Notes: generated by a model not told the origin, from the sequence alone. Shown: positions 4,458-58,308, counted from the stretch's first letter. The stretch: 64,000 nt of DNA from Candidatus Moraniibacteriota bacterium (GCA_052035095.1 JBPOHW010000007.1:65705-129704); one strand, 5' to 3'. Program-made: numbers and translations.

Positions 4458-4509
4458 GGTGTATTTACGTTATTACAATTACATTGAAGACTTCTGTCGT
4501 GCACGCCGA

Positions 4510-4583
4510 GACTGCAAAAGATAATTTTTTTCAAGTTTGCTCCGATAGAGAGGAGCTTGTGAAAAAAATTATCTTTTGCAGTC
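4510..4583. repeat. 22-bp perfect inverted repeat (gactgcaaaagataattttttt / aaaaaaattatcttttgcagtc) with 30-nt loop
   Basis: read directly; lies in tilS-ftsH intergenic region where hpt is usually found. Confidence 0.7.
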
Positions 4584-9876: not shown

Positions 9877-10611
9877 AAAACAATAGTTGCATTATACCAC
9901 ATTTTTTTTAAACGCAAGCATCTAAAAATTTCATTGGCAGGACTTCCTCACTTTGATGCAGTTCAAGGAAAAACCGAGCACCGGAACGAGGTGTATGCTG
10001 TGATACTCCGAATGAGGAACGGAGGTTTTGACGAAGAAATGCGCAAAGTGAGGAAGTCCTAATTGGAAGATAACAAAGGGAACGCGGGGAATTAGAGATC
10101 CTTAACACAAAGAAAACTCAGAAAACAAGCTGCGTAAAAAATAGGCTCGACAGATACATGTCCCGCGAGCACCTCAGAATTTCTTCACCTCAACGCAGTT
10201 TCATCAACTCAAACACTCTTAATTTGAATAAGAGAAAGTACCATTGAATAAATTAAACTCGTTTGAAAAATAATTTCTTCCTTGTACATCCATACCAGCA
10301 CACACCAATACTGCTTCACTTCAACTCTAATTAAATTAGAGCATCAAACTTTTTAGTTTCTCTGAAAATAATCCAAACTTCCTATTAAGTTCGAAATCAT
10401 TGCAAGGAGCGACACCTGTCCATATTGCCAGCTTATGAACAATGTCGTACTGCAAATAGAATGTCAGCTTAAGGAGCACTGACAAGAAGCATTTACTCAT
10501 TACTGGACTGAAAATCAAAACGAGCCTATAAATTTCCAAATAAAATCCGGCACATTTTTTCAAAAAAATATTTATACATAAAAAATGAAAAGTGCTTCGA
10601 TACAGCTAAAT

Positions 10612-12282
10612 TGTTTCACGTGAAACAATTTAAATAAAAAATCAGCAAAAACAAACGTAGCGACTCCCCTCACAAAGAAGAAAATAAACAGCATCACACG
10701 AACACGGGAAATTTTCAGCTACATCTGCAAAGAATCGCTTAGCCTCATTACGCCAAGTAGCCTGCAGTTCCATGTGGAACATTTTTATTACCGCCATTTC
10801 CACGTGGAACGTGTAAACAAGAAAAAAATAAAATAATTTCTAAAAATTAGAAATATCAATGCGCGCGAGGTATTGTAGGCTAAAAAAAAATTGTTCCACG
10901 TGAAATAAGTCAAGAACCGCCAAGACAATATGTTGAGCAAGGCCACAATCAAAAGGAAAGAAATTCCATCCTTCCTTATTTTTCATACCACTCTAAATAT
11001 AATATACTCCAAAATGTTCCACGTGGAGCATACTATTTAAAAAATTTTAAATTTTAGTAAAATTTGTTCCACATGAAACACTTAATTTAAAACAGCAAAG
11101 AAAAAGTCTCAATAGGGTGCTCTCCCTATAAACCACCCTCATCATCCTCACACGCAGAGACGCGCAGCATCCACACAAAAAGAATTTTTGACTACCAAAA
11201 AAGTACGGCTACTTGTAATAAATCAATATGCCCTACAAGTTAGCGTCAGTTCCACGCAGAACAATAAAATATCCCCGGAAAAAACTTAACTTGTTCCACG
11301 TGGAAAAATATTCTTCAAATACATGTTACTCGTGGAACACGTGTGTAAATTTCTCTAATTACTTAAAAACTTAAAAAGCATACCCTCCTTACTCTCTTAA
11401 AAACTATATACCGCGCACTATAAAACCGGACGAACAAATTCGACTCTTCGGCTTTCTTGGGAAGTTTTTAATAAAGTTAAAAGTATCGTTTCATAGTTTT
11501 TGTGGTATAAACTGACCGACCAAAAAACAGAAAAAGATAGGATAGGGAAAAATTTCTAAACCTTTCAATAAAAGGACTAAGTTTTATATCCCTTTCCACG
11601 TGGAACACGACATAGGCTCTGCATTCTATAGCAAAAAACATTAAAAAATTCCCACGTGGAACAATTGTTGTAGAGGGCATCAGTATAAAAATCGCTTCAG
11701 CTAACCTAAAAAATCCCAAGAAAGAATCGTCTTTCTTGAAAAAACCTTTGAGCAAGCACCCTCAACCACAAGAAATGCTTCACGTGGAACTTTTCTAAAT
11801 AAAGACAAACAATAAAAATGATCGGAAACGAAAATATAGGGGACATCTTTGCTTTGGTGCAATTTAAGGAGAACACAAAAAGCGCGATAAATGGCATTTC
11901 AAAAGCATCAAGCACTGTAACGGCGAATCATGCCAAAAGACCCTGCTTCAAAAAATGAGGTGCTCCTGTTCCACGTGGAAAATGATTTTCTCTACAGTGT
12001 TCCACGTGGAATAGTACTCGCTATATCTCCTTGGTTTTATCAAATGTTCTACGTGAAACATATGGAATATGCGGACAGGGAGGAACACCAAAAGCATCAG
12101 TACTTCTACCAAAGGCAGGTACCCGCTTAAAGGGTACGTTATCACCAGTAAAAAATACATTAAAAAAAGAAAAAACAACCCCGGGAGAGGTCAATTTGGA
12201 ATCAGCAATGTTCCACAAGGAACAATACCTAAAACCATTTTGGGGATTGTACACTCTCCCAAAAAATGTTCCACGTGAAAAT
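10612..12282. repeat. array of >=15 parS-like 16-bp palindromes (TGTTnCACGTGnAACA) in an AT-rich, ORF-free island
   Basis: sites at 10612 (perfect TGTTTCACGTGAAACA), 10766, 10796, 10892, 11015, 11064, 11292, 11592, 11648, 11776, 11967, 11998, 12045, 12209, 12267, plus degenerate half-sites at 11333 and 12435. Confidence 0.8.
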
Positions 12283-12569
12283 TTCAAAAATTTTTTATTT
12301 CCATTCCCACTTCGAGCACTTGTAGGACGCATCTCTCGCACAAAGGGCTGAGAGCATTTATCAATGAACTGTCCCTTTCCCGAAAAGTGAGAAAGAACAT
12401 TCCGGATTTACTCTATTTTTGTTCTACAATTTCGTTCCACAATGGGGATTATAGCAACATCATAGTCTATTTCTCCATTTAAATATGGCACTTTCCAGCA
12501 ATATTATAGTTTGACGATCTTGTGAAACATGGTACGATACCCAAAAAGTCCACTCTTTTGTTGAAAGCT

Positions 12570-19076: not shown

Positions 19077-19102
19077 CAAAAACCCTCGACCTTTTGTCTT
19101 TC

Positions 19103-19192
19103 TGTGGGGATAGAGGGACTCGCCCCGTCATTCGACGGGGCGCCATGTCGAATGACATGGCGAACCCTCACGCCACAAGGGTCCCCGCACCA
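19103..19192 (-). pseudogene. truncated tRNA-Leu 3' fragment (variable arm + T arm + acceptor 3' strand) interrupted in the T loop by a 40-nt double-hairpin insertion
   Basis: 19103-19122 and 19163-19184 nearly identical to 3' part of the adjacent tRNA-Leu gene; insert 19123-19162 is two hairpins sharing a 10-bp core in opposite orientation (gtcattcgac / gtcgaatgac). Confidence 0.6.
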
Positions 19193-19216
19193 TTTTTTTC
19201 AATTTACATTTTCTTC

Positions 19217-19301
19217 TGGTGGGGATAGAGGGACTCGAACCCTCATGCCACAAGGGCCACGCCCCTCAAACGTGTGTGTATACCAATTCCACCATATCCC
19301 C
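19217..19301 (-). tRNA. tRNA-Leu (anticodon GAG), class II, CCA encoded
   Basis: reverse complement GGGGATATGGTGGAATTGGTATACAC..anticodon region TTGAGGG..long variable arm..GGGTTCGAGTCCCTCTATCCCCACCA. Confidence 0.75.
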
Positions 19302-20624: not shown

Positions 20625-20697
20625 AGCGTGTTGAAAAAGCATCAAAGCGGAACATCTTGCGCAAAGTTTTTTGGGGAAAATTGTTTTTTTGCGGCTT

Positions 20698-20718
20698 TCC
20701 TGCCTTGCCGGCAGGCAG
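20698..20718. repeat. REP-like palindrome CCTGCCTTGCCGGCAGGCAGG (related copies at 42901 and 46852)
   Basis: read directly. Confidence 0.6.
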
Positions 20719-20820
20719 GCGAACGAAGTGGAAGACAAGCAAAAAAATAATTTTTCCCAAAAAACGGACTTTCTTAGTGCGCTCTTGGAAATGTGGTCAT
20801 TTTAACAGCAAAACAAAACT

Positions 20821-32220: not shown

Positions 32221-32237
32221 AACGAAGGGTTCTCAAA

Positions 32238-32368
32238 GCACCAAATTCAAAATTTCAAGCTCCAAATAAGCATCAAATCACAAAAAAACAAATGGGAAAT
32301 TTTTTATTTTGTCTGGTTTTTAATGTTAGAATTTGAAATTTATTTGGAACTTGAAATTTTGAATTTGA
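32238..32368. repeat. MITE-like AT-rich element, family A, copy 1 (about 130 bp, 28-bp terminal inverted repeats CAAATTCAAAATTTCAAGCTCCAAATAA)
   Basis: near-identical copy at 35023-35147; ends form a long hairpin. Confidence 0.75.
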
Positions 32369-32450
32369 AATTTTCTTTTGACACGGCTCTCAACTCATTC
32401 TCCGTTCTCCTGTTTTCCTGTCAACTGTCAATTGTTAACTGTTCGCCAGT

Positions 32451-35015: not shown

Positions 35016-35022
35016 AAGAGAA

Positions 35023-35147
35023 GCACCAAATTCAAAATTACAAGCTCCAAATAAGCACCAAATCACAAAAAACAAATGGGAAATGTTTTGCTTGAGTTTG
35101 AATATTGAAATTTGAGATTTATTTGGAACTTGTAATTTTGAATTTGG
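35023..35147. repeat. MITE-like AT-rich element, family A, copy 2
   Basis: see 32238-32368; lies directly upstream of rsmA. Confidence 0.75.
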
Positions 35148-35162
35148 AATTTTTTCTTTCAT

Positions 35163-41269: not shown

Positions 41270-42379
41270 TTGCAGAGAAAATGTGTTGTTTGCTTTAAAC
41301 AACACAAAACTGTTCGAGTTCTTCATCTGTTCCGTCAATATTCAGCGCTCACCGTTGTCGTATCGAGCGCTTTTTTGGTAACCGGAACCAATATCGCCTC
41401 ACAGGAAAAGCCGGGGGGTATTCTTTCCGGCTATTTCCATACCCAAAACACCGCCGTTCCGGAAGCGAAGTTCGCTCACAAAGAAGAAAAGAAAGAAAGC
41501 CTCTCACTCGTGCCGCTTGCGGTCGCTTCAAATACCGTCGATCCGGACGCAAAACTCGAAGACCCCTCTGTCATCGCAAACCCCAGCCTCATCATCGCCT
41601 CTTCCGACCTCTCTCCGGTGATCCAAAAAGACCCGGAAGAAGAAGGTGGCGTCACTATCTACACCGTTCTCGAAGGCGATACCGTAAGCGGCATCGCTCA
41701 AAAGCACTCCATCACCACCAACACCATTCTCTGGGCAAACGACCTCGCCAATGTGGATGAAATTCGTCCGGGCGACCAAATCTTCATTCTTCCGGTTGCC
41801 GGACTCAAGCACATCGTCGCGGAGGGCGACACCATAGAGAGTATCGCCAAAAAATACAAGGGAGACAAAGATCGCATCATCGCCTTCAACGAGCTTCCGG
41901 CAAATGGACGTCTTGAAACAGGCGAGGAGATCATCATTCCCGACGGCTCCAAGGAAATTCCAACACCGCCCGCTTCCGGTGGCATTCTGGATCGGCGCCA
42001 ATACGCAACCTCAACCGGCGGCACCGCGACCGATATTTCCGGTTGGCGCACCCCCGAAGGCAAAGCCGGCACCGGACACAAGTTTCCCTACGGCTACTGC
42101 ACCTGGTACGTCGCCTCAAAGCGCTATGTCCCCTGGGGCGGCAATGCCGGTACCTGGCTCTACAACGCGAAGTCCCTCGGATACAAAACCGGAAAAACAC
42201 CCCGCGTAGGAAGCATTGTCGTCACTACCGAAAACCGCTACTACGGCCACGTCGCCCTCGTCGAGAAGGTTTCAGGCGGCGAAATCACCGTGAGTGAAAT
42301 GAACTATGTCGGCTGGAGCAAAACCAATCGCCGCACCCTCTCCGCGAGTAGCCGAAGTATTAAGGGATATATATATTAA
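41270..42379 (+). CDS. secreted peptidoglycan hydrolase: two LysM domains + C-terminal CHAP domain
   Basis: LysM repeats (YTVLEGDTVSGIAQKH.., HIVAEGDTIESIAKKY..), CHAP Cys/His (..GYCTWYV.., ..YYGHVALV..). Confidence 0.85.
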   Translation: MQRKCVVCFKQHKTVRVLHLFRQYSALTVVVSSAFLVTGTNIASQEKPGGILSGYFHTQNTAVPEAKFAHKEEKKESLSLVPLAVASNTVDPDAKLEDPSVIANPSLIIASSDLSPVIQKDPEEEGGVTIYTVLEGDTVSGIAQKHSITTNTILWANDLANVDEIRPGDQIFILPVAGLKHIVAEGDTIESIAKKYKGDKDRIIAFNELPANGRLETGEEIIIPDGSKEIPTPPASGGILDRRQYATSTGGTATDISGWRTPEGKAGTGHKFPYGYCTWYVASKRYVPWGGNAGTWLYNAKSLGYKTGKTPRVGSIVVTTENRYYGHVALVEKVSGGEITVSEMNYVGWSKTNRRTLSASSRSIKGYIY

Positions 42380-42802
42380 TCGCTCAACTTCGATGTTTCT
42401 CAAAAGCCGCCACTTGGCGGTTTTTGTTTTTTTTAAAAACACTCCTTCCTCCCCATCCTTTCAGTTTTCCTGTTTCATTTTGTTCACATCCTGTGGATAA
42501 CCCGGTATTTTCCCGCGCGAAACTCTTGTATTCACCTGCGGGAAACCCATAAGAAATTCTGCATAACTCCACCCCACCTCCCCACAGACACACACGTCAC
42601 CGAGAATCCCAAATCTATCTTTAAGCATCACCCCTCAGAAAATCCTTTCTTAAAACAGTATTCCTCTCTTTTCAACTTTTCCACCGGACTAATAGTAATA
42701 ATATTTATATTTTAAAAAATATATTCAATACCATAGAGAGAGGGTGAAGAATGAAGAACCCACCTTACGCAGTTACTGAAATAAGAGCTAAAAACCTAAC
42801 CC

Positions 42803-42947
42803 GTCATACCCGCGAAGGCGGGTATCCAGGTTCCATTCGTCTTCAGTAAATATATTACAAGATTTTGTTCGTTGGGTGATTATATTCAGCAGGTGGTGAC
42901 TACCTGCCTGCCGGTAGGCATGGGCTTCCCGCCTTCGCGAGAATGAC
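42803..42947. repeat. MITE-like element, family B, copy 1 (about 145 bp; terminal inverted repeats GTCAT(A/T)CCCGCGAAGGCGGG(T/A)ATCC; internal CTGCC..GGCAG palindrome)
   Basis: second copy at 46828-46978; read directly. Confidence 0.7.
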
Positions 42948-42982
42948 GAAAAGAAAGACGGTGTTTAAGATGAGTAAATTTC

Positions 42983-45007
42983 TTGACGTGTACTTTTTGT
43001 GGTATACTATTTTCAGAAAAATGTTTTTGTCTTTCGTGTGTGAATGAGCGTTCCAAAATAAAAAGATCGTTTCTCTTTCGATTGAGTCTTTTCTTTAAGA
43101 ACCACCCCGTTCTGCTCTTTGTGACGCTCTCGGGGTGTTTTTTGTTGCTGCCGTATGCATCTTACGCTGGAATATGGGATACTGTTTCTCAACCAATTGT
43201 AACGGGAGCGAAGTATTTAGTATATGCTTTTTATTGGTTTTTCTCTCTTTTTGTAAATTTAGCGTCAGCGCTTTTTGTATGGGCGATTGACACGAAAACG
43301 TTTTCGGATCTCATGAATAACGCGGCTATATATACCGTATGGCTTACGGTGCGGGATTTTTGTAATATTTTCTTTATTCTCGTTCTTCTCTTTTCCGCTT
43401 TTGCGACCATCTTTCAGCTTGAGAGGTATGAATACAAGAAAACGATTCCCATGCTCATTCTCATGGCGCTTCTCGTGAATTTTAGCTTCCCGATATCGCG
43501 CTTCGTGATTGATCTTGCGAATGTTCCGATGTATTTCTTTGCACAGAATACGGTCGGGGAAAGTGGGAATATTAGTAGTCTCTCGAGTGGTCTTTTGGGC
43601 GCGTCAAATATACGTGGCGTGATACTTCCCAATTCGCAATCGCCCGATAAAGATATTACTGATTACGATTTTGTGCATTTGCTTGTGGCGGCTACATGTA
43701 TGTTTCTTTTTGGAATTTCGTTTTTTGTGCTGGCGCTTCTTATGTTGATTCGCATGATTGCATTGGTGATATTGGTGATGTTTTCTCCGATTGGATTTGT
43801 GGGAATGATTACGCCGGCACTCCATAAGTTTGCCCATGATTGGTGGGACAAACTCTTTAAATGGGCATTCTACGGGCCGATAGCGGTGATGCTTGTTTTG
43901 GTGGCGCTCGTCGTTATGAAGGCGGCCGGATCAGTGAGTACTACCATGAAGCCGCTCGCTGGTGACAGTGTGAGTAATGACTTTCTTTCTTCCGCCCTTT
44001 TCCTTGCTATTCCCATTGTCCTCTTCTGGATCGCTATCACGCAGGCGGAGAAGTATAGCAATGATATGTCCGGCTTGGGGATAAAGTGGGGGTCGAATAT
44101 AGGGCGAAAGATGGGGGGATGGATGCGACAAGGAACATGGGGTGCAACCAAATGGACGGCAAAAGCCCCATTTAAAGGTGTTGATAATCTTTCGGGGAAT
44201 ACAATTTCCGGGACAGCGCTTGGAATACGGGAGGCATGGAGAAATAGGCAGTCGGCATGGTGGGGCGGAAGTGATATTGATAAGAGAAAGAAGCAGGTTC
44301 AGGATAGCGTTTCTTCTGCATTGAAGAGGAAAGGGACAAGTACACAGGAAGTTCAAAAGAAAGTTTCTGAGCACGAGAAAGAGCATACAACGGAAACAGA
44401 GCTACGAAGACTTGTTGACCAAAACAAAGACGTTGCCGCGGCTATGGTTCTTGCGAAACAGGGGAAGCTTACGAGTGAGGAATTTACAAAAGTTCGGGCA
44501 ACCTTGGATGCAAGTGATCCGAAGAGTGAGCAGGTTATTAATCTTCTTGAAGGAAAGGTGAAGGAGAAACGGTTGGATCTTGTTATGAATTACAAAATGG
44601 GTACAAATGAGGTGAAAGATGAAATAGCAAAGAAGCGAGTTGCTAATCCAGCCTTGAGTGCGGATGATGCTCGTGATGAGGTTTACAAAGAGGTTGTTAG
44701 GAAGGAAATGGCGAAAATAAATCCCTCAAAATGGAGGGAGCAGAACCTTGAAGAGATGTTTAGTCTTGGGAAAGATGCAAGTGGAAGCGAAAGGCAATAT
44801 TCGGTTATTAGGGATGTGCATGGAAATGTGACTGATATTGCAGAGGGTGGAGTTATTATTAACACGAAAGAATCTCAAGAGTTGAAAGCGAGAATTTCAG
44901 GTGCACAGGAAGCATTTAATCGTCATTCATCAAAAAATAAAGATAAAATAATTGACGATATAAGTGGTGATAACTTCGATGCTGGAAGAAAGACGGGTAT
45001 TTGGTAG
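42983..45007 (+). CDS. VirB6/TrbL-like polytopic membrane protein with long charged C-terminal domain
   Basis: N-terminal about 390 aa with 6-7 TM segments typical of VirB6/TrbL; hydrophilic K/E-rich C-terminal 280 aa; clustered with VirB3/VirB4 homologues. Confidence 0.5.
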   Translation: MTCTFCGILFSEKCFCLSCVNERSKIKRSFLFRLSLFFKNHPVLLFVTLSGCFLLLPYASYAGIWDTVSQPIVTGAKYLVYAFYWFFSLFVNLASALFVWAIDTKTFSDLMNNAAIYTVWLTVRDFCNIFFILVLLFSAFATIFQLERYEYKKTIPMLILMALLVNFSFPISRFVIDLANVPMYFFAQNTVGESGNISSLSSGLLGASNIRGVILPNSQSPDKDITDYDFVHLLVAATCMFLFGISFFVLALLMLIRMIALVILVMFSPIGFVGMITPALHKFAHDWWDKLFKWAFYGPIAVMLVLVALVVMKAAGSVSTTMKPLAGDSVSNDFLSSALFLAIPIVLFWIAITQAEKYSNDMSGLGIKWGSNIGRKMGGWMRQGTWGATKWTAKAPFKGVDNLSGNTISGTALGIREAWRNRQSAWWGGSDIDKRKKQVQDSVSSALKRKGTSTQEVQKKVSEHEKEHTTETELRRLVDQNKDVAAAMVLAKQGKLTSEEFTKVRATLDASDPKSEQVINLLEGKVKEKRLDLVMNYKMGTNEVKDEIAKKRVANPALSADDARDEVYKEVVRKEMAKINPSKWREQNLEEMFSLGKDASGSERQYSVIRDVHGNVTDIAEGGVIINTKESQELKARISGAQEAFNRHSSKNKDKIIDDISGDNFDAGRKTGIW

Positions 45008-45040
45008 GAATTAAGTTTTTTTCGTGTAAATTTCTTATCT

Positions 45041-46333
45041 ATGATATCTTCCGGTACCATGAATAGTCAGTTCATAAATAGATCGGTAACCCCTGTTTTG
45101 GTTTGGACTGAAAAAAATCCGGATGAGGAAACTCGAGAGCAAGTGATTGCGAATCATGAGCGATTTCGAATGCTTCCTCCGGAAGCGAAGTATAAGCTCG
45201 GATTTCAGTATACTCCCGAGATTATCAAAAAAATTGGGGAAGACTTCAGTTTGGATCCGCTGAAAATGGCGAGTATTGCTCGTGCGGTACGGAATTTCTA
45301 TTTTGGCGATCTTCCAAAAGAGAAAATTGAAGGATTCTTAATGGAAGAAATGGAAATATCTTCGGAACAAGCTCAAAAAATAGCCTTGATTGTTGATCAA
45401 AAAATCATCAGTGCGCCGATTCCCAAAGATGTTTCTGAACAGACAGTAGAAATTCCCCTTCTCGACGCCCTCTCAAAGTATCAGCGGTTGTCGGAGCAGG
45501 CGGTGACGGAGGATAGAATTGTGGTGAAGGGAGAGGGTCAGCCGGTACGGGGGTCGATTCGCAATTGGCTCCGGCACTATCGGGACGTGGTGGGGATTCG
45601 GAAGCACTCCGCGATGGAACGGGGACAGTTTTTGTTCCAGGGGGAGAATACCAAGCGACTCTCCGCGCCGGATCGGGAAAAGCTCTCACTTCTCTTTCGT
45701 TCGCTCGATGAGAATATGCCGATTTCAATCGATGTCGAGCGACAGGAGGTGATATTCCCAGCATTTGAAGAAAAGTCGAACGCGAATCAAGCGCCTCTCG
45801 AGGAGAAAGTGACGCCGACGCTTGGCACCTCATTTCGTCCGATCGAAAAGTTCCCCGCCTCTTCCACTCCCATAAAGAAGGCGCTCGAGTGGAAGACAGA
45901 GAAAACAGCGATACCGCCGCTTTTTGGGAATGTTCCCGCGCCACCACGACCCGAGATTACGTCATCGAAATCGGTCGGCGTTTCTGCTCCGGTATACGCG
46001 ATTCCCCCTATTCCTGTGTCGCCGAGCGGAGATGCTCGCGCGGAGGGAGGTAAGAGTGGAGGAATGCCTGCGGCGCAAGAAGGAATGTCGGTCTCGTCGC
46101 CGTTTTCCGCGCCGGGAAATATGAGTTTTAGTTCAAGTCACGTGCTTCCCCACGAGAAGGCAGCTCTTCCTGCGGAGCCGCCGCAAGAGGGAGTATCAAG
46201 CGAAGGACATCCTCCTTCAAGGGGTCCCGAGGCAATCAGTGTCATTAAGCCTCGTGGCGATCAGTTTGGCTTTCGCGGGAAGTCGTCGGGAGATGACTTC
46301 GATGCTCCTCGTGTGGTAAACTTACGGGGTTAG
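45041..46333 (+). CDS. hypothetical protein with Pro-rich low-complexity C-terminus
   Basis: 430 aa, no recognisable motif. Confidence 0.4.
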   Translation: MISSGTMNSQFINRSVTPVLVWTEKNPDEETREQVIANHERFRMLPPEAKYKLGFQYTPEIIKKIGEDFSLDPLKMASIARAVRNFYFGDLPKEKIEGFLMEEMEISSEQAQKIALIVDQKIISAPIPKDVSEQTVEIPLLDALSKYQRLSEQAVTEDRIVVKGEGQPVRGSIRNWLRHYRDVVGIRKHSAMERGQFLFQGENTKRLSAPDREKLSLLFRSLDENMPISIDVERQEVIFPAFEEKSNANQAPLEEKVTPTLGTSFRPIEKFPASSTPIKKALEWKTEKTAIPPLFGNVPAPPRPEITSSKSVGVSAPVYAIPPIPVSPSGDARAEGGKSGGMPAAQEGMSVSSPFSAPGNMSFSSSHVLPHEKAALPAEPPQEGVSSEGHPPSRGPEAISVIKPRGDQFGFRGKSSGDDFDAPRVVNLRG

Positions 46334-46379
46334 AAAAACTGACAACGTACAACGAACAACAGGAATCCTTTGTTTTATT

Positions 46380-46823
46380 GTGGTTGTTTGTTGCCAGTTG
46401 ATTGTTGTCTGTATTTTTCCTATGCTCTTCAATGTTCCGCAATTCATCGATGTGGAGGATAAGATCGCGGGACCGCTTACTGTGAAGCAGGTGTTGTGGC
46501 TTATCGGGATGGGGGCGGTGCTGTTTATCGTATGGACTTTTTTTGATACGCCAACGTTTTTCGTCCTTTCCGTTCCTATTATCCTCATTTTCGCGCTGTA
46601 TGCCTTCTATCGACCGTACAATCAGTCTATGCTTTCCTTTACCATTCACGGGGTGATGTTTTTTTTTCGACCCAAGCTCTATACATGGGATCGACCGGGA
46701 GTAATGAAACGACCGGATCCGAAACCGGTGGAAAATAAACCGATATCGGAATCCCCTCGACCGCTTTCCTTTGAAGAAATACAAGCATTGGCGAAAGTGG
46801 TGGATAGAGGTGGGAAGCGATAG
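46380..46823 (+). CDS. PrgI/VirB3-like small two-TM protein of type IV secretion systems
   Basis: 147 aa; N-terminal ..FIDVEDKIAGPLTVKQVLWLIGMGAVLFIV.. resembles PrgI family; positioned immediately upstream of VirB4. Confidence 0.5.
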   Translation: MVVCCQLIVVCIFPMLFNVPQFIDVEDKIAGPLTVKQVLWLIGMGAVLFIVWTFFDTPTFFVLSVPIILIFALYAFYRPYNQSMLSFTIHGVMFFFRPKLYTWDRPGVMKRPDPKPVENKPISESPRPLSFEEIQALAKVVDRGGKR

Positions 46824-46827
46824 CACT

Positions 46828-46978
46828 GTCATTCCCGCGAAGGCGGGAATCCCTGCCTTCCGGCAGGCAGGCAGGTGTCACAATGCCCAATGTAACATCT
46901 TTACAAATGAAGTCTGTAAACATTTTCTGTAAGCTGGTGGAGCCTGGTTCCCTCCCGCTGAGGCGGGACGGGGATGAC
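46828..46978. repeat. MITE-like element, family B, copy 2, filling the virB3-like/virB4 intergenic gap
   Basis: GTCATTCCCGCGAAGGCGGGAATCC at 46828 and inverted partner ending 46978. Confidence 0.7.
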
Positions 46979-55612: not shown

Positions 55613-56764
55613 ATGAAGAAGTTCTTCATCGCTACTTCCGTTCTTTTTGGAATTTTTCTCCTCTTTTTCCTCATATACAATTTTTTGTTCAAGCACAATC
55701 CGTTCGAGGGGAGGGTGCCCAATACGGCGGTGATACCAAATGAAACCGGATCGAGCAAAGAAGAGATAGAGGAAACGAAAGCAATCGCGAACGTGACGGA
55801 TGAGGAGGTGGTGGCGCCGATATTTGATGTCGAAGATCAGGCGATCCTCTATCTCGTGCCGGAAGAACAGGCGCTCAAAGAAACCTTCCTCGTGACCAAT
55901 GCGCCGCGCACGGTCGCGCGGTTCTCTTTTGTGCCGAGAAATATCATCTGGTCGCCGGATAGGAAGCGGGCGCTCGTCAAAAAGAGCGATACCGAATGGG
56001 CGCTCTTCACGCGCGAAAAAAAGGGAGAGGCGAATGAGGGTTCGCCCGTACAAATGCTGAAGCCCGGCATCGAAAGCCCCGCGTGGACGACGCTTGGGGA
56101 CAAGATTGTTTACAAATACTACGATCCGGCATTGGAAACGCGCACGCTCACCCTCGCGAATCCCGATGGGACGGATTGGGAGATGATCGGCGAGACGACA
56201 TTTCAGTTTTTGGAAATACAAGCGGTGCCGAAGAGTTCGCTCATTGCGTTTTGGAATTGGGGGAATGCTTTTGAGGAGACATCGCTCTCGGTTGTGGGGG
56301 CGATGGGGGGCGAAGTGAAAGAAATTTTTTCCAAACACTATGGCGTCGACTACGCGATCGCGCCAAATGGCAACACGATACTTTTGAGCAATACGATCGA
56401 AAAGGGTGGGACGGCGGTGACGCTTGCGACCATCAATGTAAAGGGTGGCAACTACCGTAATCTCGCCATCCCGACTCTCGCCGGAAAGACCGTCTGGGCC
56501 AAAAACAGTCGCGTGATTTACTACGCGCTCCCGGGCGCCATCCCCGCGGGGAGTATTCTGCCCAATGATTACTACCGGAAACCGATCCTGACTGCCGATA
56601 CGTTCTGGAAGATGGATATGGAGACGAATGAAAAATCTCGCCTTGTTGATCCGGCCGATATCGACCGGAGCTATGACGCCGAAAACCTCGTCCTCGATAC
56701 GGACGAGACCACGCTCTTCTTCCGCAATCGCCACGATGGGAAGATATACAAAATCAACCTCTGA
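55613..56764 (+). CDS. membrane-anchored hypothetical protein, probable beta-propeller (TolB-like) fold
   Basis: N-terminal TM; repeated ..DG..ILLSN/ IVYKYYD.. style beta-strand motifs; no catalytic motif. Confidence 0.4.
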   Translation: MKKFFIATSVLFGIFLLFFLIYNFLFKHNPFEGRVPNTAVIPNETGSSKEEIEETKAIANVTDEEVVAPIFDVEDQAILYLVPEEQALKETFLVTNAPRTVARFSFVPRNIIWSPDRKRALVKKSDTEWALFTREKKGEANEGSPVQMLKPGIESPAWTTLGDKIVYKYYDPALETRTLTLANPDGTDWEMIGETTFQFLEIQAVPKSSLIAFWNWGNAFEETSLSVVGAMGGEVKEIFSKHYGVDYAIAPNGNTILLSNTIEKGGTAVTLATINVKGGNYRNLAIPTLAGKTVWAKNSRVIYYALPGAIPAGSILPNDYYRKPILTADTFWKMDMETNEKSRLVDPADIDRSYDAENLVLDTDETTLFFRNRHDGKIYKINL

Positions 56765-58308
56765 GTTTTTCCACCCCTCCTTTGCAAGGAGGGGAGCGGG
56801 GTGGTTCCGGTTTGCGGCTCCGGCTTCAAACCCCTTTGTCTCGAGCCCGAGCCACCCCGCCTTTGCCAAGGGGATGGCGAAACCCCCATAAAAAACACGA
56901 TCCAGAAACTATACGCGAGCCCGAGTCGCCAGTAGGTGGTGTCAACGAGTCCGTGAATGAGTACTGTGAGCATTATTGCCGTGAGTGCCGAGAGAATCAA
57001 GTGATTCTCTTCTTTTTTTATTTCAAAAAAAACAGTCCGGAACCACCAAACAACCAAAAAGCCGAATGCCAAAAGCCCCATAAGACCGCCTCCGAGCCAA
57101 AACGCGAGGAAAATAGTGTGCGGCTCCGGCACCGACCACTCGAGGTAGGGCGGGAAGTATTGTTGATACGCGAGATAGCAGGATTGGAAATTTCCGGGTC
57201 CCACGCCAAAGAGAGGCGAATTGGCGATCATTGCTTTCGCTGATCGCCAAATCATCAGGCGTGAGGCGAAAGAAGAACGCGAATCGGGATCAAAAAAATG
57301 TTCAAAACGCGGAGTGTTCCACTGGGAGAGAATGATTATTCCTGAAAATACAAGAAACACGGCGGTGTATCGTAGGGGCGAATAATTATTCGCCCGTACC
57401 CCTTCTCGTACCCATCTAGTTCGCGTCATGTATTCAAACAAGAAAATCCCAATCGCAACTGCGATCCACGCGGAAATGGAATGGGTGAGGAAGAGAAGGA
57501 AGGAAAGCAAAATGAAAAATGAAAAATGAAAAATGAAAAATTGGGAACGGGAAATGCGGGAACGGAAAAAGTACCATAAGAGAATGATGGCGGGGGTGAG
57601 GTGCATGGCGAGGGCGTTGGGGGAATTGAATATTCCGGAGAGACGATGGTCATAGGTCATACCGCTTCCAAAAATCCACCCAAGAAGCGAGAGAATGGAA
57701 ATCGGGAGGAACGATACCGTGAAAATGAAAAGGAGTTTTTCGCGCGAAAAATACCGACCGGAGGCGCGAAAAAGAATCCACCCGAAGAGTATTGGAAATG
57801 CAAACCACGATTTCAGAATACCGAGCGCTCGCAGGAGTCCTTCCTGCGACATTGGACAGAGAGCATGACGTGAAAACGCGGCAACGAGTGTGGAGGAAAG
57901 AACGCCGAGAAGAAGGACAACCATCCCAATGTGTACGGGCGAATAATTATTCGCCCGTACGAAGCGCATTGATGTCAACATCATTTTTCCCCATTGTTTT
58001 CCCTTTATTCCTCCCGTTTCTTCCTTCCTTTGCGCTCCCTTTCTCCACCCTTCTATGTTTTCAATTCTTTGCGAAATCTCCCCCTTTTGTTTTCGTGTCC
58101 AAAACAGCACCGCCGCTGACGCTATCACTCCCATCTCGACCATATATATCGGCACGCCGAATAGCACCACTTTTGCGTTTTCAAAGTGGAGGAGGAAGAA
58201 TGTCGCGGCGAGGCTACCGAGCAAGTATGGTCTTATGCTCATACGAAGAAAATGCGAAGAGAACGAGGAGGAGTGGGAGGATGTGCACCGAATAGATCGG
58301 CGTTTCAA
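56671..58308 (-). CDS. O-antigen ligase/polymerase (Wzy_C)-family membrane protein carrying two in-frame palindromic insertions
   Basis: multi-TM; motif RLSGIFNSPNALAMHL; true start probably internal; contains 28-bp palindromes at 57372-57399 and 57933-57960 and a heptamer tandem repeat. Confidence 0.55.
   Translation of the reverse strand: MKRRSIRCTSSHSSSFSSHFLRMSIRPYLLGSLAATFFLLHFENAKVVLFGVPIYMVEMGVIASAAVLFWTRKQKGEISQRIENIEGWRKGAQRKEETGGIKGKQWGKMMLTSMRFVRANNYSPVHIGMVVLLLGVLSSTLVAAFSRHALCPMSQEGLLRALGILKSWFAFPILFGWILFRASGRYFSREKLLFIFTVSFLPISILSLLGWIFGSGMTYDHRLSGIFNSPNALAMHLTPAIILLWYFFRSRISRSQFFIFHFSFFILLSFLLFLTHSISAWIAVAIGIFLFEYMTRTRWVREGVRANNYSPLRYTAVFLVFSGIIILSQWNTPRFEHFFDPDSRSSFASRLMIWRSAKAMIANSPLFGVGPGNFQSCYLAYQQYFPPYLEWSVPEPHTIFLAFWLGGGLMGLLAFGFLVVWWFRTVFFEIKKEENHLILSALTAIMLTVLIHGLVDTTYWRLGLAYSFWIVFFMGVSPSPWQRRGGSGSRQRGLKPEPQTGTTPLPSLQRRGGKTQRLILYIFPSWRLRKKSVVSSVSRTRFSAS
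57372..57399. repeat. 28-bp palindrome GTA(G/C)GGGCGAATAATTATTCGCCCGTAC, copy 1 (one mismatch)
   Basis: read directly; encodes RANNYSP on both strands. Confidence 0.8.
57517..57550. repeat. tandem heptamer repeat (ATGAAAA)x4
   Basis: read directly inside the ligase-like ORF. Confidence 0.7.
57933..57960. repeat. 28-bp perfect palindrome GTACGGGCGAATAATTATTCGCCCGTAC, copy 2
   Basis: read directly. Confidence 0.85.

Follow-up and report, generated by a model that had tools for sequence, protein, structure and literature searches.

The NTS repeat and its counterpart in a Moraniibacteriota secretion locus

Two non-coding elements of about 150 bp lie on either side of type IV secretion system (T4SS) genes in a 64,000-nucleotide stretch of a Candidatus Moraniibacteriota bacterium (GCA_052035095.1, JBPOHW010000007.1:65705-129704; the whole of this stretch is referred to below as the window). 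Their closest described counterpart is the NTS repeat of Neisseria together with the nuclease that recognises it. The published NTS, CGTCATTCCCGCGMAVGCGGGAATCYRG, is an oriented extension of the Neisseria dRS3 repeat, and has been generalised across taxa as the Ssn-related motif, SRM (Chenal 2025, Nat Commun, PMC11893778). SsnA is described there as a 94-aa GIY-YIG protein of family cd10448 (Ssn proteins are about 95 aa long) that binds the folded hairpin in single-stranded DNA (ssDNA) only and does not bind RNA. Cutting takes place a few nucleotides 5' of the hairpin on the NTS-sense strand, and both cutting and binding depend critically on a GTC 5' of the palindrome and a C immediately 3' of it. 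Genes for Ssn are typically arranged NTS-ssn-NTS, a layout that the authors call IS-like, NTS copies are clustered around membrane-protein genes, and in N. meningitidis the Ssn/NTS system lowers transformation by NTS-bearing DNA (PMC11893778).

To judge from its sequence, the 25-mer that terminates the window elements is the core of this NTS/SRM motif, of the Neisseria dRS3 type (PMC11893778). Matches to GTCATWCCCGCGAAGGCGGGWATCC occur at 42803 (+) and 46828 (+) with 0 mismatches and at 42923 (-) with 2, where 0 are expected in shuffled sequence, and the exact 25-mer core is found twice in the window (42803 and 46828). The full 28-nt NTS aligns to 42802-42829 with 2 mismatches and to 46827-46854 with 3, again with 0 expected by chance; those at the first site amount to a single compensatory swap of a T:A stem pair to A:T, and those at the second are all at outer positions. 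Each intact NTS is predicted to fold as an 8-bp stem with a GAAG loop (-8.6 kcal/mol). GTCAT is present at all four ends, and the C directly 3' of the palindrome is present at 42803, 42923 (-) and 46828, the fourth end being degenerate. In 224 distinct NTS copies, Watson-Crick pairing in the stem stands at 92-98%, and 5 of the 8 pairs show compensatory variants; this count is biased, since the copies were chosen for similarity to the consensus. The consensus derived from the collected copies, (Y)GTCATTCCCGCGAAGGCGGGAATCCAG, equals the published one. The elements are members of this repeat family by sequence and by hairpin. We consider it probable that they are non-autonomous inverted doublets of the NTS/SRM repeat, (Y)GTCAT + ATTCCCGC-GAAG-GCGGGAAT + CC, resembling an NTS-ssn-NTS unit from which ssn is missing. 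In the published system this repeat is what Ssn, a GIY-YIG nuclease with a single domain and about 95 aa long, recognises in ssDNA (PMC11893778).

An earlier note on the window had described two related elements, at 42803-42947 (copy 1) and 46828-46978 (copy 2), with shared GTCAT-type inverted ends and internal CCTGCC..GGCAGG palindromes, a relative of which was placed at 20698. The elements, the palindromes in both, and the copy at 20698 are all borne out. The inverted ends hold for three of the four, the last (46946-46978) being degenerate and not a 25-mer. Copy 2 does lie between the genes for PrgI and the N-terminal domain of VirB4 (VirB4N), as the note had said, but it nearly fills that gap rather than exactly: the PrgI stop (46823) is separated from the VirB4N ATG (47002) by 178 bp, and copy 2 takes up 151 bp of this. 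The note's label, like a miniature inverted-repeat transposable element (MITE) or a repetitive extragenic palindrome (REP), was also well chosen, in that these are non-coding inverted doublets of a dispersed hairpin repeat, which near-identical strains may carry whole, in truncated form or not at all.

Copy 1 runs opposite to copy 2, its plus strand aligning to the minus strand of copy 2. They have in common a module of about 50 nt, CCTGCCTGCCGG(W)AGGCA..GGG.TTCCCGCCTTCGCG.GAATGAC. Their other ends share a GTCAT-hairpin-CCAGGYTCCA box, with an AT-rich core enclosed, so arranged that the same end of each, with the CCTG hairpin and NTS, faces the genes. CCTGCC..GGCAGG palindromes, which are built of (CCTG)n and (CAGG)n arms, occur in the window only at 20704, 42903 and 46852 (5 overlapping matches, 0.04 expected). 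Folding of copy 1 as ssDNA is predicted at -33 kcal/mol (z = -5.8), and whole elements give folding z-scores of -4.3 to -6.5. A structure-based scan of the 64 kb found no GTCA-hairpin variants beyond the two doublets. The copy at 20698 is a solo instance of the CCTG hairpin within a separate AT-rich inverted repeat with 27-bp arms; no NTS adjoins it, and strain comparison there is uninformative, the short-read contigs breaking inside the hairpin.

The window elements share with the published NTS/SRM-Ssn system the oriented motif CGTCAT + ATTCCCGCG-MAV-GCGGGAAT + CYRG with its 8-bp hairpin, the extragenic location, the inverted copies flanking genes and the wide phylogenetic spread. They differ in forming doublets of about 150 bp in which a CCAGGYTCCA box is conserved and an AT-rich core is joined by a further hairpin, (CCTG)n/(CAGG)n, in having no ssn gene within view in the window, and in their host, a Moranbacteria-like member of the candidate phyla radiation (CPR), whereas the genome set given in the paper is that of RefSeq reference and representative genomes (PMC11893778).

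Other repeat systems are less close. The left end of copy 2 contains the exact dRS3 core (ATTCCC-N8-GGGAAT), and variable membrane-protein genes are flanked here as they are in Neisseria. The Neisseria NIMEs are arrays of RS units separated by dRS3, whereas the window has isolated doublets, and the role of dRS3 as the integration target of the Nf prophage is without counterpart in the window. The REP/BIME/REPIN-RAYT and IS200/IS605 systems, with their PATEs, resemble the doublets in being hairpin-based, inverted, recognised in ssDNA, free of target-site duplications (TSDs) and associated with a small single-gene "parent". Their enzyme fold (HUH Y1 versus GIY-YIG) and their motif are different, and REP families are lineage-specific, in contrast to an NTS 25-mer that is identical across phyla.

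A search of the window against Rfam at the gathering threshold returned tRNAs only. At permissive E-values the only further matches were to FtrB and WsnRNA46, all of them below gathering scores, and no family named for GIY-YIG-flanking hairpins came up. The consensus of FtrB (Francisella sRNA B, RF02748) contains gucauuCcCGCGuAGGCGgGaauC, and its match in the window scores 20.7 bits against a gathering score of 66. WsnRNA46 (Wolbachia, RF02625) has a GTCAT...GGATCCAGAAA doublet layout and matches the Rickettsia doublets of one collected locus, L056 (55.9 against 65.3), and nothing in the window. This suggests that both families are transcribed copies of the same repeat class and that such repeats are sometimes transcribed; the similarity gives no indication of a role for the window elements.

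Distribution of the repeat and a CPR subfamily

In a scan of one genome per species, the exact 25-mer was found in at least 120 bacterial genome stretches. The hosts among the matches listed include Bacteroidota, Alpha-, Beta-, Gamma- and Deltaproteobacteria, Chloroflexota, Planctomycetota, Nitrospirales, Elusimicrobiota, Rickettsia and Patescibacteria. It is also present on at least 120 viral contigs of IMG/VR; among the viral loci listed (L141-L260), doublets occur in 42 of 120, and NTS-GIY-YIG-NTS units of 370-380 bp in 7 (for example L169 7786-8164 and L195 3389-3768). This suggests phages and prophages as vehicles for the spread of the motif between phyla, which would be a plausible route. 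A plasmid search with a doublet locus from a Klebsiella metagenome-assembled genome gave no match.

Inverted doublets of 54-140 bp are the commonest form of the motif among the genome loci listed. Gene-bearing NTS-GIY-YIG-NTS units of about 360-520 bp occur in 10 of the 240 loci listed, genomes and viruses together, the genomic cases being L070 and L073 (360 bp each) and L028 (about 520 bp), with an open reading frame (ORF) of about 96 aa between the same ends. The ORFs in these units are single-domain GIY-YIG proteins (PF01541), and a GIY-YIG nuclease is the only gene recurrently enclosed by these ends in the loci listed. Judging by these ORFs and their ends, the published NTS-ssn-NTS arrangement is recovered here independently.

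Within this wide distribution, the window copies belong to a CPR subfamily defined by the CCAGGYTCCA box, by the AT-rich core and by a (CCTG)n..(CAGG)n hairpin that not every copy has. When metagenomes were scanned for the CCTG hairpin joined to the NTS module, one match was a CPR-like contig, L132, carrying genes for DedA/VTT, GalT, GT2 and RuvX. It has two homologous elements of 155-177 bp within 5 kb, one with and one without the CCTG hairpin, in direct orientation and bracketing two unrelated genes. The same scan found a short nested variant of the module in L131 and L133. The CCTG hairpin adjoins none of the 221 NTS in the cross-phylum set. For this reason we regard the hairpin as an optional module of the CPR subfamily.

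A smaller palindrome was seen in L137, a relative with 89% identity, whose 38-bp PrgI-VirB4N spacer (4483-4520) holds a CTGCC-AGCA-GGCA mini-hairpin resembling the CCTG/CAGG palindromes, at the same site as copy 2 of the window.

Strain history of the two sites and possible roles

Strains were compared through contigs that encode a VirB4N protein 100% identical to that of the window. Three alleles of the PrgI-VirB4N spacer were found. Allele A, in the window and L121, is 178 bp long with the full 151-bp element. Allele B, in six contigs, is 79 bp long, and in it GTCAT is followed at once by the element's last third. Allele C, in three contigs, is 103 bp long, with no NTS and with unrelated AT-rich sequence in its place. 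The far end of copy 2 has an 8-nt insertion relative to allele B. Allele B itself is most simply explained as a deletion of about 91 bp between CATT microhomologies that kept a decayed NTS. Strains with allele B are without copy 1, and a different segment of about 105 bp replaces about 229 bp at that site. In relatives at 85%, 89% and 72% VirB4N identity the spacers are 10, 38 and 10 bp long, respectively, and about 110 kb of locus sequence from these relatives contains no NTS. Even so, the NTS-free relatives keep the same order of genes, UbiA-UvrD-XerC-CHAP/LysM-TrbL_3-4xx aa-PrgI-VirB4N-VirB4C. Because there are three spacer alleles, because copy 1 is missing in allele-B strains, and because NTS-free relatives have the same gene order, the elements are recent, strain-variable and unstable additions to a conserved chromosomal T4SS locus. 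Gain, decay and replacement have been recent at both intergenic sites.

The allele C spacer (L126-L128) is weakly similar (E = 0.08-0.3) to another AT-rich palindromic family of the window. The two copies of that family, at 32236-32380 and 35021-35160, have the form CCAAATTCAAAATT...AAATTTTGAATTTGG, are about 140 bp long with 78-82% identity, and each form a long hairpin.

The earlier note had proposed that the elements mediated rearrangement or acquisition of the genes between them, or that they act as terminators or insulators, and had called for a comparison of T4SS organisation in relatives and a search for TSDs. The strain and relative comparisons speak against the first proposal. Both findings that the note had named as refuting its reading are made here: the repeat proves to be a generic one of ubiquitous occurrence, and T4SS loci that are otherwise identical, with no rearrangement, are without it. 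Since the gene order is the same in relatives without either element, the elements did not assemble or import the cassette. The operon does not need them, nor did they build it. Nor does the bracketed segment stand out as a single unit in its divergence. When L123 is compared with the window, identity is about 96% in both flanks (about 96-99% in the flanks of the sister strains), 60-85% over 42.8-44.0 kb in the 5' part of TrbL_3, and 97-99% over 44-46 kb, with a short dip to 78% at 46.2-46.4 kb. Three strains that are 96-99% identical elsewhere fall to 62-85%, in different pairwise combinations, in two tracts (43.0-44.0 and 44.4-45.2 kb), which lie in TrbL_3 and at the start of the 430-aa gene; all three diverge from one another in the first tract, and the second is a feature of L126. 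The bracketed genes are also the least conserved in distant relatives without NTS. The locus is a mosaic of fast-evolving membrane-protein genes, with elements at two of the variable spots. The parallel to NTS-flanked Neisseria surface genes is a loose one, and is not evidence of an element-delimited mobile cassette. By our estimate, two elements would fall within 4.2 kb of each other with a chance of about 0.1 under random placement, which is weak evidence of enrichment. No TSD was found in 78 doublets, in which direct flank matches equal the permutation expectation for k = 1-8; the flanks of the window copies read ccc/gaa and act/gat, and the inverted repeat of the doublets extends to YY-GTCAT...ATGAC-RR.

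The doublets may spread, or may once have spread, by way of ssDNA and without TSDs, with an Ssn-type enzyme acting in trans. Where Ssn is present, the sites would be cut in ssDNA during transformation, conjugation or replication, and this cutting would limit or shape recombination around the fast-evolving T4SS membrane genes. In its strongest form, which we regard as rather unlikely, this proposal would make the doublets active non-autonomous elements of a CPR bacterium, moved as ssDNA by a GIY-YIG nuclease of the Ssn type. The three-allele polymorphism among near-identical strains would then be a natural record of insertion, decay and replacement, and the position around hypervariable T4SS genes by a GC-skew switch near 43 kb would reflect either Ssn-controlled recombination or preferential insertion into frequently single-stranded DNA. 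Several points weigh against the main reading and against its extension to mobility. Of the four NTS ends, two have decayed. A filled site cannot be set cleanly against an empty one at either polymorphic site, replacement or partial deletion being found instead, and therefore transposition is not demonstrated. In the original paper mobility of NTS doublets is raised only as a hypothesis (PMC11893778), and Ssn is not known to mobilise NTS. Searches by tblastn and hidden Markov models found no GIY-YIG/ssn gene in the 64-kb window, nor was ssn among the genes called in about 10 kb past the window's right end in the sister strain L261. Since the cognate ssn was found in neither of these, the two regions that the search covered, the enzyme may be absent from the genome and the copies may be inert relics.

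A role resembling that of NIMEs or "minimal mobile elements", in which the repeats serve as boundaries or modulators of allelic replacement of hypervariable T4SS membrane genes after DNA uptake, is likewise doubtful. A boundary role of this kind has been proposed for dRS3/NTS-flanked surface genes in Neisseria. NTS are reported to cluster near membrane-protein genes and to affect transformation (PMC11893778). At this locus the most divergent sister-strain tract (60-85% over 42.8-44.0 kb) begins at the copy 1 site, and both element sites are allelic hot spots. However, no element lies at the other end of that tract, at about 44.0 kb, and identity within the bracket is 97-99% over 44-46 kb. L123, which has no copy 1 and only a remnant of copy 2, is equally divergent in the same tract from L126, which has no NTS at the copy 2 site and in which the copy 1 site lies off the contig. 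The same genes are the fastest-evolving in distant relatives without NTS, this is a single locus, and no Ssn was found.

A function at the level of RNA, with the elements as terminators, insulators or mRNA-stabilising hairpins in the T4SS operon, seems to us very unlikely. It would agree with the strong folding of the elements, with the location of copy 2 between two genes of the same orientation, which relatives separate by just 10 bp, and with the overlap of related doublets with small-RNA families at sub-threshold scores (FtrB, WsnRNA46). The terminator scan called neither element, while it made a strong call for the upstream hydrolase gene, and because no T-run follows the hairpins the elements are not intrinsic terminators. 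Relatives have the operon but not the elements, the elements are missing or the spacers differ in sister strains whose VirB4N protein is identical, and the published Ssn is described as not binding RNA (PMC11893778).

It is highly improbable that the elements form a bracket like that of a composite transposon, the inverted copies having mobilised or imported a TrbL_3-430aa-PrgI cassette. The copies are indeed inverted, with the same CCTG-hairpin and NTS end toward the genes. This reading is contradicted by the synteny, which is identical in relatives that lack the elements. Conservation of VirB4N with its partners extends to >6900 homologues, the L132 copies are direct and surround two unrelated genes, and there are no TSDs. 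A classical DDE-derived MITE, or a REP/REPIN mobilised by a RAYT (Y1 HUH), is scarcely to be credited, for although the elements are short and non-coding with terminal inverted repeats and a doublet layout like that of REPINs, they have no TSD, their motif is without the GTAG head of REP, and the only gene recurrently inside these ends is the GIY-YIG nuclease of NTS-GIY-YIG-NTS units, the only gene-bearing partner with the same ends (no search aimed at RAYT genes was made), for which transposase activity is unproven.

The secretion locus and its surroundings

Coordinates of the repeats and of the adjoining genes in the window
Feature	Position	Strand	Remarks
Solo CCTGCCTTGCCGGCAGGCAGG hairpin (20698-20719)	20666-20765	.	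within AT-rich inverted repeat with 27-bp arms; intergenic
LysM/CHAP cell-wall hydrolase, upstream of copy 1	41270-42379	+	intrinsic terminator 42401-42426
Copy 1, NTS/SRM inverted doublet, 145 bp	42803-42947	+	left NTS - CCAGGTTCCA - AT-rich core - CCTG/CAGG hairpin - right NTS
Left NTS of copy 1, CGTCATACCCGCGAAGGCGGGTATCCAG	42802-42829	+	
(CCTG)n-GGTA-(GGCA) hairpin module of copy 1	42903-42922	.	
Right NTS of copy 1, GTCATTCTCGCGAAGGCGGGAAGCC on minus strand	42923-42947	-	2 mismatches, stem partly decayed
TrbL_3 (VirB6-like) membrane protein	42983-45007	+	first ~1 kb (43.0-44.0 kb) hypervariable among strains
430-aa protein, no Pfam family	45041-46333	+	
PrgI (VirB3-like), 133 aa as called	46422-46823	+	
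Copy 2, NTS/SRM doublet, 151 bp, inverted relative to copy 1	46828-46978	-	
Perfect 25-mer NTS of copy 2	46827-46854	+	includes exact dRS3 core
CCTGCCTTCCGGCAGGCAGGCAGG hairpin module of copy 2	46852-46875	.	
Degenerate far end of copy 2	46946-46978	-	reads GTCATCCCCGTCCCGCCTCAGCGGGAGGGAACC; GTCAT + TCCCGC-CTCA-GCGGGA hairpin
VirB4 N-domain as separate protein (TraC-like, PF26593), 231 aa	47002-47697	+	
VirB4 ATPase part (DUF87/AAA_10/TraG P-loop), 606 aa	47751-49571	+	

The genes that the earlier note had labelled VirB6-like, VirB3-like and VirB4 encode TrbL_3, PrgI, and a TraC-like protein followed by a TraG-type P-loop protein, a T4SS of the Gram-positive/CPR type. Named homologues at 66-70% identity are from Candidatus Moranbacteria, which points to a Moranbacteria-like CPR host. 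VirB4 is split, its N domain and ATPase being in different frames, an arrangement conserved in thousands of CPR homologues. A frameshifted pseudogene was considered and ruled out, the 231-aa N-domain protein being a conserved separate gene; because the split is conserved in >6900 homologues, it is not a defect.

Measured in 2-kb bins, GC skew is without exception negative between 1 and 44 kb, though only -0.03 at 42-44 kb, and without exception positive between 44 and 64 kb. The switch falls at 42.5-43.0 kb, in the spacer between CHAP and TrbL_3 where copy 1 lies, and the same switch is seen in L134, L135 and L123 and not in the more distant L140. One perfect DnaA box (42492-42500) is present in this spacer. 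A replication origin there was considered and not adopted, the box being single with no cluster, and the switch stands as an observation only. In the sister locus L261, dnaA-dnaN follow shortly after the right end of the window, at a position equivalent to about 65-68 kb, and the skew does not change at that point. The switch near 43 kb may mark an origin that is not adjacent to dnaA.

An ORF-poor region of about 1.7-2.5 kb at 10600-12300 has low GC (36% in the 10-12 kb bin) and 17 copies of a 16-bp palindrome, TGTTCCACGTGGAACA (<=3 mismatches; 0.19 expected), matching the parS consensus (TGTTNCACGTGAAACA). So dense an array is centromere-like, and unusual compared with the few dispersed parS of typical chromosomes. 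Three copies of a 28-nt palindrome, GTACGGGCGAATAATTATTCGCCCGTAC, are found at 56024, 57372-57399 and 57933-57960, two of them 96% identical and 561 bp apart. A 43-nt stretch at 19094-19136 shares 79% identity with the 3' portion of the adjacent tRNA-Leu gene region (19209-19251); ARAGORN calls no tRNA there, and this may be a tRNA fragment or remnant.

Read as NTS/SRM doublets, the elements turn an apparently new MITE family into part of the NTS/SRM-Ssn system described in 2025, and this removes a false lead on the acquisition of the T4SS cassette. What is new is the presence of the repeat in CPR/Patescibacteria genomes as a distinct subfamily of about 150 bp with an extra hairpin, together with the frequency of the exact 25-mer on viral contigs, a plausible route between phyla. 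Near-identical strains that differ in element state at two sites provide a natural system for testing the mobility of NTS doublets.

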